A stretch of 50,872 nucleotides of DNA, from positions 1-50,872 of the forward strand of contig JAQTSY010000007.1 in the NCBI GenBank assembly GCA_028711065.1, given 5' to 3'. The DNA comes from Minisyncoccota bacterium. GTDB taxonomy: Bacteria > Patescibacteriota > Minisyncoccia > Phycocordibacterales > JAQTLZ01. Below, piece by piece: positions 1 to 28,526 of the stretch. Both the position numbers and the translations under genes were made by a program. Every line of letters begins with the position of its first letter. Within the stretch, counting starts at the first letter, position 1. Under the pieces are notes generated by a model. That model had not been told where the DNA came from. It searched no databases and saw only the letters and a list, made by a program, of their open reading frames with translations.

Positions 1-132
1 ACCGCCCGTCAACTCAAGGGAACTGGGAGTGCCCGAAGCCTCGTCCTGTACGAGTCTAAGGCAAGCTCAGCGACAGGGAGTAAGTCGTAACAAGGCACGG
101 GTAGCGGAAGCTGCTCGTGGAATATTTCAATT
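1..132 (+). rRNA. rrs: 16S rRNA gene, 3' end (partial)
   Basis: ACCGCCCGTC (1-10), helix 44, AAGTCGTAACAAGG (82-95), helix 45 CACGGGTAGC-GGAA-GCTGCTCGTG (96-119). 3' end placed by alignment to E. coli, approximate. Confidence 0.96.
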
Positions 133-258
133 TGAAAATGTTTTCATTTCTTCGGAAATGCATAACTTACGGCGTCGATTTAGAATGCCTCAATTGAGCA
201 TTCTAAGGTTTATCTAAACTGTAAATAGATTGGCATCTCGGAAAGACGAGAAAAAGGA

Positions 259-24854: not shown

Positions 24855-24871
24855 AGAGTGCTTGTCGCTCC

Positions 24872-24900
24872 ATCGTATCCCGCTCTTTTTTCGATGTCAA
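24872..24900 (-). promoter_or_regulatory. Main promoter of glycan operon
   Basis: TTGACA-17-TACGAT, 17 nt before gmd ATG. Confidence 0.72.
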
Positions 24901-24950
24901 TCAATTTCTTCGGTTTTTTTGAAATTGAAGCCTGTGCTATAGTAGCTTTC

Positions 24951-27074
24951 ATGGAAACAAACAAAATTCTTCATCGAAGCATCCTAGTCGGCATTTTTGC
25001 ACTTCTTCTCATACCTTTTTTGGTTTTCAATTCTATGTTTTTTCCGTTTATCACAGGAAAAAACTTCGTCTTTCGCATTATTGTTGAGATAATTTTTTGT
25101 CTTTGGATTATTCTTATTTCTCGCGACAAAAGTTTTTTGCCTAAACGTTCAACACTTTTCTACGCTTTTACGGCATTTATCGTCGCAATCACTCTTGCGG
25201 ATTTTCTCGGAGTTGATCCGTATAGAAGTTTTTGGAGTGATTTCGAACGGATGGAGGGGCTTATTGCCCATCTTCATTTTTTCGCACTCTTTTTGGTCGC
25301 GGGTTCTGTATTCAATACTAAAAAATTGTGGACATATTTTTTCAATTCTGCGCTCGTGGTCAGTGTCGTGATGGCTTTCTATGGAATCTTTCAGCTTGCT
25401 GGCGTGTTCGAAATCCATCAAGGCAGTTCGCGTATCGATGGTCCGATTGGGAATTCCGCATATCTGGCCATCTATATGCTTTTCCATGTTTTCCTTGCGC
25501 TTTTTCTGCTTTTGCGTTCACGAGAGAGGCGAATGCAGATTGTGTATGGGGGAGTCGCGCTTCTCAATACTATAATTGTCTATTATACAGCTACTCGAGG
25601 GTCTATTTTGGGCCTCATTGGAGGTCTTTTCTTAACAGCTATTCTTATCGCAATTTTTGAAAAAGAAAGGCCGATATTAAAAAAGGTTTCAACTGGCGTG
25701 ATCGTAGCTATTGTTGCAGTTATTGTTCTCTTCTTTGCTTTGAGGAATCAGCCTTTTGTGAGAAATAGTCTTGTCCTCAATCGTTTCGCGACAATTTCTT
25801 GGACGGAGCAGACCACCGAATCTCGATTTTTGATTTGGAAGATGGCATATCAAGGTTGGAAAGAGCGCCCACTTTTCGGCTGGGGGCAAGATAATTTTAT
25901 TCTTGTTTTCCAAAAATATTATGATCCGAAAATGTGGAACCAAGAACCTTGGTTTGATCGGACTCATAATGTCGTCTTGGATTGGCTTATTGCAGGCGGA
26001 GCTTTTGGGTTTCTCACCTATATTTCTCTCTTTGTCGCATCTCTCTTCTGTATTTGGAAGAAGAAAACGATACTCTCTTTGGCTGATAAGGCCGTGCTGA
26101 CTGGGCTACTTGCTGCTTATTTCTGTCACAATCTTTTTGTGTTCGACAATCTCACGAGCTATCTTCTTTTTGTGTTTGTTTTGGCGTATTTCCATTTTCT
26201 TAGTCTGCAAGGGTCAGAAAACGCCGATGAGATTCAGACAAAATTTGGAGAAGGTCTGTCTCCCAATGTGCAATCAATTTTAATTCCGATTACGATTATC
26301 GCTCTGCCTATCTTGGTTTATTTTGCTAATGTGCCCCAAATACTTGCCAACACCTCTCTCATCAGAGCTATTTCCTATGAGAACGCTGATATTTCGAAGA
26401 GTCTCGATGCTTTTAAAGAATCAATTTCCTACAACACTTTCGGGAAACCGGAAACCCGCACTCAACTTTTAGAGAGTTCTTCTGCTGTCGCTGCGTCTAA
26501 TAGTCCGACTCCGCTCAAGCAGAGTTATCTCTCGTTTATCAAGAGTGAAATGGAAACACAGATACAAGAGGAGCCTCTTGATGCCCGCTATCCATATTTT
26601 CTCGGACAATTTTTAGATCATTTTGGATTACCGGCTTTGGCTCAAAAGAATTTTATGAAGGCTCTCTCTCTTTCTCCCAAAAAGCAGGATATCGTGATAG
26701 CCCTTGCGGTAAGTCTTTATAATGCCGGAGAGAAGGACAAAGCTTTTCTCACGATGAAACAAGCATTTGATCTTGATCCAGATAATGAAACTGCTCGACT
26801 TATTTATGCAACCCTAGCAATCTACTCGAGTAAAGACGACATCGTCAAAGATCTTATTCTCAATAAATACCACACCTATCTTGTCCCGGATGATAGGATC
26901 ATGACCGCATATATAAAGACTGGCCAGCTTAAGAAATATGTTGCTCTCGATACTGCATTTTTGACAGGGCAGATGAAAGCGGGATCTTTGAGTCAAGATG
27001 AGCTTCAAGCTATAAACACTGCACACCAAGAGTTCCAGAAGAAGATGGACGCCTACTCAAAGTCGAATCAATAA
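24951..27074 (+). CDS. O-antigen ligase (Wzy_C) family protein with TPR-like C-terminus
   Basis: Many TMs, RIDGPIGNSAYL, TATRG, RPLFGWG, WFDRTHN; start METNK at 24951 after TG-C-TATAGT. Confidence 0.87.
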   Translation: METNKILHRSILVGIFALLLIPFLVFNSMFFPFITGKNFVFRIIVEIIFCLWIILISRDKSFLPKRSTLFYAFTAFIVAITLADFLGVDPYRSFWSDFERMEGLIAHLHFFALFLVAGSVFNTKKLWTYFFNSALVVSVVMAFYGIFQLAGVFEIHQGSSRIDGPIGNSAYLAIYMLFHVFLALFLLLRSRERRMQIVYGGVALLNTIIVYYTATRGSILGLIGGLFLTAILIAIFEKERPILKKVSTGVIVAIVAVIVLFFALRNQPFVRNSLVLNRFATISWTEQTTESRFLIWKMAYQGWKERPLFGWGQDNFILVFQKYYDPKMWNQEPWFDRTHNVVLDWLIAGGAFGFLTYISLFVASLFCIWKKKTILSLADKAVLTGLLAAYFCHNLFVFDNLTSYLLFVFVLAYFHFLSLQGSENADEIQTKFGEGLSPNVQSILIPITIIALPILVYFANVPQILANTSLIRAISYENADISKSLDAFKESISYNTFGKPETRTQLLESSSAVAASNSPTPLKQSYLSFIKSEMETQIQEEPLDARYPYFLGQFLDHFGLPALAQKNFMKALSLSPKKQDIVIALAVSLYNAGEKDKAFLTMKQAFDLDPDNETARLIYATLAIYSSKDDIVKDLILNKYHTYLVPDDRIMTAYIKTGQLKKYVALDTAFLTGQMKAGSLSQDELQAINTAHQEFQKKMDAYSKSNQ

Positions 27075-27111
27075 ATTTCCTTGAGTGCTATTAGGGGCAA
27101 AAAGCAAACGC

Positions 27112-27178
27112 AAAACCCCTCCGAGGAGGGGGCTCACGTAGACATTCTTTTTGGGAACTAACTTTCGTTAACTCACAC
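27112..27178 (-). ncRNA. Candidate small RNA A (~67 nt)
   Basis: Promoter TTGACT-17-TACCAT with TG (27185-27213); GAAA-capped hairpin; terminal CCCCTC-CTCG-GAGGGG-TTTT; only a 3-codon ORF. Confidence 0.55.
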
Positions 27179-27252
27179 AACTGCATGGTAGCAAGAATTG
27201 GCTTAAAAGTCAAGTTTTTGTCGAATGCTGGCCAGAGTATATAATAAGAGTA

Positions 27253-27342
27253 TATTGTTTCGATATATAGTCGGCGGCTCTGCACTCACATATAAGACAT
27301 TATTTTGGAGCTAGCATCCGCCGACTATGTATCGACGCAATA
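27253..27342 (+). ncRNA. Candidate small RNA B / long stem-loop (strand uncertain)
   Basis: ~25-bp stem (27253-27277 with 27318-27342) around a 40-nt loop; TTGTCG-16-TATAAT (27218-27245) directly upstream. Confidence 0.5.
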
Positions 27343-27362
27343 ATTTAGCGCTAAGTGTCGCA

Positions 27363-27480
27363 AGTCAAAAGTATTTTTCTTGTGAAAAATCTTTCGACCC
27401 TGCCTCGCGCCGTCGCGCTCCGGCCTTGCGAAAGCTCCAAGTATTCGCTTTCTCACTCGTCCGCGCCTCGGATAGCATCT
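27363..27480. repeat. GC-rich REP-like intergenic element with imperfect hairpin
   Basis: AGTCAAAAGTATTTTTC-TTGT-GAAAAATCTTTCGACC hairpin followed by GC-rich CCTCGCGCCGTCGCGCTCC; only one copy in the window. Confidence 0.35.
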
Positions 27481-27506
27481 AAATTCTTGCATCGAAATGA
27501 TCGGTG

Positions 27507-28526
27507 ATGAAAATAGAAGAAAACATTTCACTTAAAGAGCACACAACATTCAAGATCGGGGGCAAAGCCCGGTATTTTTGTCTTGTCCAAAATGAGAAGG
27601 ATTTGAAAGAGGCGGTTGCTTTTGCAAAACGGGAAAAAGTTCCGACACTTGTGCTCGGCGGGGGTTCGAACGTGCTTATTTCTGAAAAAGGTTTTGACGG
27701 ACTGGTTGTGAAAATTGAATTGAAAGGAATTGAATTTGAAGAGGCTCGGGGCGGCGTGCTTGTACACGTTGGAGCGGGGGAGAATTGGGATTCGTTTGTT
27801 GCGGAGACTGTCAGACGCGGACTCTTTGGGCTTGAAAATCTTTCCGGAATTCCGGGAACAGTTGGCGGGGCACCGGTGCAAAATATCGGCGCCTACGGCG
27901 CTGAAGTGAAAGACGTTTTTGATTCTGTTGAGGTTTTTGATCCCTTAACTGGAGGAATTTTTGCAATGACAAAAAAGGAATGCGAATTTGCTTATCGCGA
28001 CAGTATTTTTAAACATGAAGAGGGGAAGCATTTGATCATTTTGAGAGTCACATTTTTCCTGAAAGAAAATGGCGAACTTAATACGAGCTACAAAGATGTA
28101 AAGAAATATTTAGAAGAGAAGAAGATTACTGAACCCACGCAGGAAGAAGTGAGAAACGCAGTGATTGAAATCCGCTCGAAGAAATTTCCTGATCTGAAAA
28201 AATTTGGAACTGCCGGCTCATTTTTCAAAAACCCAATTATTCAAAGAGAAGAATTTGAGAAGCTTCTCAACGATTACCCAAAACTCCCTTCGTTCCCAGC
28301 AGGGGAGGGATTGGTAAAAATTCCTGCCGGTTATCTTTTTGATGTCATTTGCGGATTCAAGGGCGTACGGCACGGTGATGCTGGAGTATTTGAAAATCAG
28401 GCGCTTGTGCTTGTGAACTGGGGAAAGGCAACGGCGGAAGAAATAAAAAAACTCGCAGAAGAAATGCGAGCGAAAGTAAAAGAAAAAACAGGGATTGAAA
28501 TTGAGTTTGAGGTGAATATTCTCTGA
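27507..28526 (+). CDS. murB: UDP-N-acetylmuramate dehydrogenase
   Basis: HTTFKIGG, LGGGSNVL, GIPGTVGGAPVQNIGAYG, FAYRDSIFK, AGSFFKNP, QALVLVN. Confidence 0.96.
   Translation: MKIEENISLKEHTTFKIGGKARYFCLVQNEKDLKEAVAFAKREKVPTLVLGGGSNVLISEKGFDGLVVKIELKGIEFEEARGGVLVHVGAGENWDSFVAETVRRGLFGLENLSGIPGTVGGAPVQNIGAYGAEVKDVFDSVEVFDPLTGGIFAMTKKECEFAYRDSIFKHEEGKHLIILRVTFFLKENGELNTSYKDVKKYLEEKKITEPTQEEVRNAVIEIRSKKFPDLKKFGTAGSFFKNPIIQREEFEKLLNDYPKLPSFPAGEGLVKIPAGYLFDVICGFKGVRHGDAGVFENQALVLVNWGKATAEEIKKLAEEMRAKVKEKTGIEIEFEVNIL

Follow-up and report, generated by a model that had tools for sequence, protein, structure and literature searches.

The 50,872-nucleotide (nt) stretch analysed here in its full length, the window (contig JAQTSY010000007.1 of the Minisyncoccota bacterium assembly GCA_028711065.1; contig C4 of genome G000 in our set, which comprises 974 kb in 31 contigs and is 99% complete), harbours two small RNA genes, RNA A and RNA B, in the 429-nt spacer 27075-27503 that precedes murB. 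A and B probably constitute a dedicated, co-evolving small-RNA pair, present throughout one order of the ultra-small Parcubacteria (Paceibacteria), in which A would act in trans, pair with the loop of B and switch the state of B. Comparison with relatives reveals conservation of both RNAs, of their structure and of the positions of their promoters and terminator, the co-occurrence of the two genes, and covariation between A and B; dozens of compensatory changes provide a natural mutagenesis record that defines the pairing bases. The pair sits between two cell-envelope genes, one of the Wzy_C type and murB, and spans more than 100 families of the GTDB taxonomy. Most bacteria in the candidate phyla radiation (CPR) remain uncultured; the A/B pair is directly testable in vitro and in a heterologous host, with no culturing needed. 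The literature searched contained no report of a conserved regulatory RNA in CPR bacteria, and no description of the A/B pair was found there or in Rfam.

Conservation of RNA A and RNA B and covariation between them

Homologues were collected with two covariance models, R1 for B and R2 for A, seeded from nine families, whose E-values are rough. Searches covered an order sample of 301 genomes (190 genera) and a phylum sample of 251 genomes, and 90 B loci were fetched; the statistics on pairing between the RNAs refer to 71 non-identical loci, those on the stem and loop of B to 89 sequences and those on the promoter of A to 72 homologues. B was found as a single copy in 209 of the 301 genomes of the order (139 of the 190 genera), and R1 matched solely in four genomes of the phylum sample, all of the same order. 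R2 located A beside B in 72 of the 90 loci, and five more appeared with filters off (at least 77 of 90). In whole-genome searches, 18 of 19 B-containing genomes gave one strong A match each; 20 genomes without B had no A, barring four marginal matches of 28-30 bits. A DNA search against 40 relatives likewise produced separate matches to the A part and to the B part, in many different families, and the matched loci, when read, contained both elements side by side. In a congener (G002), B and the A gene together with its promoter match the window at 100% identity; a 32-nt insertion or deletion lies between A and B, and the regions beyond have diverged.

The first-pass annotation of this DNA had proposed two separately promoted RNAs, A on the minus and B on the plus strand. 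Both promoters and the terminator of A were recovered where it placed them (Table 1), and their positions are conserved across homologues. A scan of the region returned seven promoter-like sites against 1.4 expected. Upstream of the GUGAG of the 72 A homologues, -10-like hexamers are most frequent at 6-8 nt (65 in total over these distances) and TTGACA-like hexamers at 28-30 nt (38 in total), which places the 5′ end of A at the seed itself. Accordingly equipped with the sequence features of its own promoter and Rho-independent terminator, in positions conserved in the 72 homologues, A is predicted to be a terminated RNA, as had been suggested, of about 75-80 nt instead of the ~67 nt originally estimated. 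The A of the window scores 76.7 bits against R2 and, folded alone, gives z = -3.3 relative to shuffles. Its ACGUGAG (27139-27133; GUAAG in most relatives) forms the lower terminator stem with UUUUGCGU.

The promoter of B has a positionally conserved -10 box: a TATAAT match of at least 5/6 ends 4-13 nt before the first stem base of B in 56 of 89 loci, with a peak at 8-11 nt. The congener retains TATAAT and has a different -35, and in compact loci the U-tract of the A terminator (UUUGCGU) doubles as the B -35 region. The arms of the B hairpin (27253-27277 and 27318-27342) are 25 nt each, 88% complementary and 40 nt apart, and the fold has a minimum free energy of -44.4 kcal/mol (z = -8.7). Both non-Watson-Crick pairs of the stem read T-G on the plus strand, in favour of a plus-strand RNA. 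In agreement with this, B scores 86.7 bits in the sense and 38 in the antisense orientation against R1, and its homologues 70-94 bits and 36-46 bits, respectively, so that sequence features and model scores support the strand assignment. Compensatory changes were seen in 22 of the 23 stem pairs, with 92.9% of cells paired compared with 36-47% for slid partners, and the GC/GC and CUC/GAG pairs inside the apical domain are invariant. By these comparative measures, B is a genuine, strand-specific structured RNA.

The back-to-back orientation that the earlier annotation pointed out is no defining trait but turned out to be the exception, and by the loci compared tandem is the rule: 68 of 72 pairs have A directly upstream of B and on its strand, the median gap between the model ends being 26 nt. 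A is inverted relative to B in this genus (L001 and L011) and in the two further lineages L084 and L092. The A and B of the window are distinct genes that do not overlap; 65 nt separate them, and they occupy opposite strands. This arrangement is a natural experiment, as an A that is inverted and still perfectly conserved cannot be in the transcript of B and must therefore work in trans.

The complementarity of A to the exposed loop of B, also postulated from the window alone, is where the comparison was most informative. Comparative data support two helices. In the first (site 1), the 5′ end of A, with the consensus (U)GUGAGUGC, pairs with B GCACUCAC(A); this corresponds to what had been noted as a second match at the 5′ end of A. 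In the second (site 2), A CGAAUGUCU, in the linker just before the terminator, pairs with B AGACAUU(NG). The ~25-nt alignment between A and the B loop that was initially drawn thus holds as regards loop pairing and fails in its register, namely in the ACGUGAG/CUCAC part, since ACGUGAG belongs to the terminator stem and CUCAC is served by the 5′ end of A.

At site 1, 94% of cells are paired and six of the nine pairs have changed on both sides (for example GC 57, GU 9 and AU 5 at one pair; UA 59 and CG 3 at another). Compensated versions comprise AUGAGUG/CACUCAU, GUGAGCG/CGCUCAC, GUAAGUG/CACUUAC and ACGAGUG/CACUCGU, and nine further loci have a G-U wobble in which the G of A faces the U of B, a tolerance that argues for pairing at the RNA level. 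Site 2 has 95.5% of cells paired, seven of nine pairs doubly changed (38 doubly changed cells) and a covariation score of 0.284, compared with at most 0.077 with slid partners. For its seed, no fewer than seven alternative complementary versions were seen, spread over at least 15 families, among them AAUGUAU/AUACAUU, AAUAUCU/AGAUAUU, AAAGUCU/AGACUUU, AAUGCCU/AGGCAUU, AAACAUC/GAUGUUU and AAUGUUG/CAACAUU. These counts refer to cells, which are not independent events, and the variants are spread across many families. Two controls were applied. When B partners were re-dealt among genomes, the observed pairing was reached in 0 of 5000 trials (z = 7.0 for site 1 and 14.5 for site 2), and slid partners over both sites were paired in 14-63% of cells. 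Both the stem of B and the A-B duplex, for which the annotation had recommended a covariation check, therefore covary in relatives.

Duplex energies of the pairing segments, compared with shuffled controls as had also been recommended, point in the same direction. Cognate pairs average -14.9 kcal/mol at site 1 and -13.7 kcal/mol at site 2, non-cognate pairs -14.0 and -9.8 kcal/mol, and shuffled A segments -6.3 and -5.5 kcal/mol; in the window the values are -11.8 and -13.5 kcal/mol against about -6 ± 2 kcal/mol for shuffled A segments. Segment energies were used because RNAcofold of full-length A and B returns two monomer folds, the pairing of a loop with a linear strand being a pseudoknot outside its model. 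Judged by these energies and by the compensatory changes, the complementarity between A and B exceeds chance. The B loop is also the single place in the 974-kb genome that matches both seeds, and a genome-wide search for other A targets returned no second site matching both. Given that seed 2 drifts freely together with B, A would have essentially one partner.

A probable switchable pair and the competing explanations

Transcription of the two RNAs, the direction of regulation and the physiological output are a matter of inference from these patterns, and the mechanism that we consider probable is the following. A, a ~75-80-nt RNA with its own sigma-70-type promoter and intrinsic terminator, would act in trans, its 5′ end and pre-terminator linker binding two adjacent segments in the 5′ half of the apical loop of B through helices of ~8-9 bp and 7-12 bp. 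B would form a hairpin at the extreme 5′ end of its own transcript, which here runs into murB. As site 1 overlaps one strand of the GC/GC and CUC/GAG pairs, binding of A must open them and free the near-invariant UUUGGAGCUAGC, so that A might toggle B between two states. Where B leads the murB mRNA, A would tune translation or stability/decay of this mRNA; where B stands alone, A would tune some murB-independent activity of B. The constant ~23-bp 5′ stem is a plausible RNase III or 5′-end-protection element.

Several observations weigh against this mechanism. The covariation score of site 1, a highly conserved site, is 0.136, and one slid control reaches 0.125; in this genus, moreover, hairpin 1 partly buries seed 1, which is also shorter. 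On B the two sites come in a crossed order, which prevents the helices from stacking as one continuous duplex; the complex would thus be a compact junction and not one long duplex. The 23-bp stem, at the base of which the start codon sits, is not plausibly melted by loop binding. The promoters, ends and expression of A and B are predictions from sequence. Lastly, murB is not behind B in about 32 loci, where B typically has its own intrinsic terminator or is followed by unrelated genes, and 20 of the 31 genomes without murB after B have no detectable murB at all, yet keep A and B.

These last points bear directly on a second explanation, according to which A and B are separately transcribed halves of one structured RNA, a bimolecular junction or ribonucleoprotein scaffold with its own housekeeping or sensing role, and murB borrows the promoter of B. 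The pair is kept, with the loop sequence unchanged, where B is terminated or murB undetectable; A and B are strictly gained and lost together; and the drift of seed 2 with its partner, B being the sole bipartite target, would fit two pieces made for each other. The constant length of the stem and the invariance of UUGGAG-CUA-GC, for which no RNA partner was found in this genome, further suggest a protein or ligand site. A more specific version, possible to a similar, limited degree, sees the pair as a bimolecular RNA device of Parcubacteria in which the crossed helices, of about one turn each, clamp A on the B loop and expose or shape UUUGGAGCUAGC for a protein, a ligand or the ribosome, murB being merely attached behind in most lineages. 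Three features make us regard the two-piece structure as a distinctly less probable account than a switch operated by A. The pair occurs in one order only and is missing from about 30% of its genomes, which is unusual for a housekeeping RNA; the anatomy of A, with 5′ seed, A-rich linker and terminator, is that of a regulatory small RNA; and in most genomes the murB start keeps a distance of about 12 nt to the stem, a spacing suggestive of functional coupling.

A third explanation assumes a single long murB leader, with A as its 5′ part, the terminator of A as an attenuator and the A-B pairing as an intramolecular long-range fold. The tandem order of 68 of 72 pairs with their short median gap, the A promoter being the stronger of the two, and the transcript that read-through at the A terminator would yield all speak for it. 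We nevertheless hold it to be improbable, given that A is on the opposite strand here, yet fully conserved, and opposite in two other lineages too; that B has its own conserved -10 box; that B, transcribed after the A terminator, cannot influence the termination decision; and that often no gene lies behind B.

Two further explanations fare worse. The shared motifs might be DNA operator half-sites for a regulatory protein, as they lie near two promoters and form a direct repeat on the DNA of this window; this is very unlikely, since their DNA orientation flips between tandem and divergent loci while the complementarity relative to transcription is always kept, G-U wobbles are tolerated at paired positions, and the motifs are inside transcribed structured regions (predicted), off the promoters. 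The likeness to tisB/istR-1 drawn in the first-pass annotation would make the locus a module like the type I toxin-antitoxin systems, B encoding a toxic peptide and A repressing it, and although the RNAs adjoin (divergently here) and are partly complementary, this has hardly any probability left, as neither RNA has a conserved open reading frame (ORF) or start codon (the ORFs over the region are unconserved shadows), the conserved consensus blocks are pairing elements only, and the locus, unlike mobile toxin-antitoxin loci, in most genomes occurs once and keeps its place between Wzy_C and murB.

Known RNA classes were examined as well. Neither RNA had been recognised as a member of a known family, and Rfam 15 agreed: at the gathering threshold the whole window contained only rRNA and two tRNAs, and a permissive scan of 26950-27650 gave chance hairpin matches only (best mir-5595, 25.8 bits against a cutoff of 100). 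A cis-antisense pair of the CopA/CopT or RNA I/II type was rejected, as there is no overlap between the genes, and one strand carries both in 68 of 72 pairs. 6S RNA was rejected with no match and a B that is too short. The signal recognition particle (SRP, 4.5S) RNA was rejected on several grounds: RF00169 and RF01854 match neither B nor the rest of the genome; the failure to detect SRP RNA is phylum-wide, whereas B occurs in a single order, about 30% of whose genomes lack it; and the apex of B is a ~20-nt loop without GNRA tetraloop and lacks helix-8 features. As a separate observation, the small and large bacterial SRP models of Rfam found no SRP RNA in the genome under study, in 30 relatives or in 121 genomes of the phylum, and did match control genomes; either the SRP RNA of this phylum is highly divergent or the search prefilter misses it. 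Transfer-messenger RNA is present elsewhere in the genome and was found normally across the sampled genomes.

With respect to the invariant 3′ half of the B loop, a genome search for an RNA partner found no complementary one, and contact between a Shine-Dalgarno (SD) sequence and its anti-SD is out, since the 16S rRNA tail has no CCUCC. By the standards of metabolite riboswitches, the invariant loop nucleotides could make a pocket; a conserved platform of alternative helices is lacking, and pairing with A explains half of the loop.

RNA B, murB and comparable systems

The annotation had further suggested that B is the leader of murB, which would make A a regulator of wall synthesis. The first half of this proposal stands for the genome studied: its gene order makes B the predicted murB leader here, and 56 of 90 loci (about 63% in the order) have murB behind B on the same strand, with the start codon a median of 12 nt past the stem. 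The second half is weakened by the loci in which B has its own terminator, about a third, and by those that keep the pair without a detectable murB. This persistence excludes a purely murB-directed role. A cis-regulatory leader always lies in the 5′ untranslated region of the gene it regulates, which B does not. The gene content of these loci thus indicates that the A/B pair has a role for which murB is not needed in cis, control of murB being at most one output. In 56 of 90 loci, murB-less ones included, the Wzy_C gene with TPR repeats lies on the same strand upstream. Mur ligases (1-5) are kept in 18 of the 20 murB-less genomes (the 31 genomes tested include G010, G066, G032, G128 and G047), and the loss of murB with retention of Mur ligases suggests either a non-homologous MurB replacement or salvage of N-acetylmuramic acid. 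If A controls murB, the pair would be an RNA switch on the supply of peptidoglycan precursors in organisms that depend on a host for most building blocks; if it does not, the pair would be a new kind of two-piece RNA.

The loci of relatives have no SD-like sequence between B and the murB start. In agreement with these SD-less spacers, the 3′ end of the 16S rRNA in the window (96-135) reads GGAAUAUUUCAAUUU after helix 45 and has no CCUCC anti-SD. In this window the distance between the B stem and the murB start is 166 nt, owing to insertions, one of which is the repeat copy at 27364-27432. One element of the spacer, an inverted repeat termed I2, brings together the 3′ arm of B with its flank (27326-27352) and the segment just before the murB start (27471-27503). 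The duplex has an energy of -16.8 kcal/mol compared with -7.1 ± 2.4 kcal/mol for shuffled sequences, none of 500 being as good. Both arms are identical in the congener though the spacer between them differs. By its predicted energy, the I2 helix could bridge the inserted 166-nt spacer or compete with the basal stem of B.

Several well-known systems resemble the pair in part. One is OxyS-fhlA of E. coli, in which a small RNA encoded in trans binds a single target RNA by two short helices, apart from each other and ~7-9 bp long, at least one of them at a target hairpin loop. The targets of OxyS are many, and it uses two loops of its own, whereas A uses its 5′ end and linker and has an apparently single, co-evolving partner that is always encoded beside it; in contrast to fhlA, B also exists without an ORF behind it. 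DsrA, RprA and ArcZ acting on rpoS, and GlmZ acting on glmS, which also concerns cell-wall precursor synthesis, are small RNAs with their own promoter and terminator that pair with a long 5′ leader hairpin and change its fold. They pair with the arm that sequesters the ribosome-binding site, whereas A would pair with an apical loop far from the start codon; moreover, unlike in those systems, the 16S rRNA here has no anti-SD, and no Hfq dependence is known for A or B.

The recognition of a stable hairpin loop by a small terminated RNA within a dedicated one-to-one pair, with a helix that must form around a closed loop, is shared with CopA/CopT of plasmid R1, RNA I/RNA II of ColE1 and hok/sok. 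Those RNAs are cis-encoded on opposite strands and fully complementary, whereas A and B have separate genes and two short patches kept by compensatory mutation; in contrast to the plasmid pairs, A and B are also chromosomal and syntenic. With tisB/istR-1 the pair has in common neighbouring genes, divergent in this window, and a small RNA partly complementary to the 5′ region of its neighbour; it differs in the lack of a toxin ORF and in that most homologous loci are tandem. T-box leaders resemble B, as proposed here, in being structured leaders that sense another RNA, and not a metabolite, through two separate base-pairing contacts. The partner of B is a dedicated small RNA in place of a tRNA, neither a T-box sequence nor an Rfam match is present, and no terminator/antiterminator platform lies downstream of B.

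Features of the region and neighbouring elements

The coordinates of the features in and around the spacer are compiled in Table 1. The gene next after murB is secA.

Table 1. Features of the window around RNA A and RNA B, in order of position
Feature	Position	Strand	Basis and remarks
Wzy_C (O-antigen-ligase-like) membrane protein with TPR repeats	24858..27074	+	Pfam; upstream neighbour of A
RNA A (predicted), about 75-80 nt	27100..27179	-	5′ seed, hairpin 1, A-rich linker, seed 2, extended terminator stem, U-tract
A extended terminator stem and U-tract	27139-27107	-	Fold; covaries (CGUAAG with UUUGCG)
A intrinsic terminator core CCCCTCC-TCGG-GGAGGGG, then TTTTGCGTTT (tail UUUUGCGUUU)	27131-27116	-	Terminator scan
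A seed 2, AAUGUCU (27146-27140) and AAAA past one G-A mismatch	27140..27151	-	Pairs with B 27295-27306; helix supported for A 27146-27140 (maybe to 27151) with B 27295-27301 (maybe to 27306)
A hairpin 1, GAAA loop	27174-27155	-	Fold; in 96% of 71 homologues, sequences differing
A seed 1, UGUGUGAGU	27171..27179	-	Predicted 5′ end; A 27179-27171 pairs with B 27284-27292
RNA A promoter (predicted)	27185..27213	-	Promoter scan; -35 TTGACT 27213-27208, 17-nt spacer ending TGC (extended -10), -10 TACCAT 27190-27185
RNA B promoter (predicted), TTGTCG-16-TATAAT	27218..27245	+	Promoter scan; -35 lies 4 nt from that of A, back to back
RNA B hairpin	27253..27342	+	5′ end of predicted transcript; 23-25-bp stem, ~38-nt apical domain with internal GC/GC and CUC/GAG pairs
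B loop 5′ half, A-binding part (predicted)	27282..27306	+	Site 1 (GC)ACUCACAUA 27282-27292; site 2 AGACAUUAUUUU 27295-27306
B loop 3′ half, UUUUGGAGCUAGCA	27303..27316	+	UUGGAG 97-100% in 89 sequences; pairs with GC...CUC in B alone
Multi-copy structured repeat, inserted copy	27364..27432 (to about 27470)	.	Between B and murB; outside the A/B system
Segment complementary to B 3′ arm and flank (27326-27352)	27471..27503	+	Inverted repeat I2, just before the murB start
murB (UDP-N-acetylenolpyruvoylglucosamine reductase)	27504..28526	+	Pfam FAD_binding_4 and MurB_C; downstream of B

Many relatives carry a conserved module downstream of A-B(-murB) (for example L024 2704-2930, L055 1015-1200 and L097 1117-1300). 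It consists of AAAAAGTTATCCACA (a perfect DnaA-box 9-mer), a promoter, a ~100-nt leader with GGTCGA and a Lys/Ala-rich ORF of 19-40 codons, for example MAAKKKAAKKKKASKKKRA. A link of the pair to DnaA boxes or oriC was considered and rejected: the TTATCCACA found after A-B(-murB) in relatives is part of the promoter of the Lys-rich micro-ORF and is not present after murB here, where secA follows.

The structured repeat inserted between B and murB has no Rfam match and occurs in 4-5 copies in this genome, the further ones at C9:9541-9607, about C9:9840-9920, C16:120039-120108 and C17:52979-53045, and in up to 16 copies in relatives. Two of its hairpins, AUUUUUC-UGCU-GAAAAAU and GCGC-CGUC-GCGC, covary between copies. 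The repeat is missing from the same spacer in the congener, which indicates a mobile insertion. At L008 2001-2160, a copy has a 34-nt duplicate of the tRNA-Phe 3′ half at its flank, and another adjoins a tRNA-Ser pair and a large serine recombinase.

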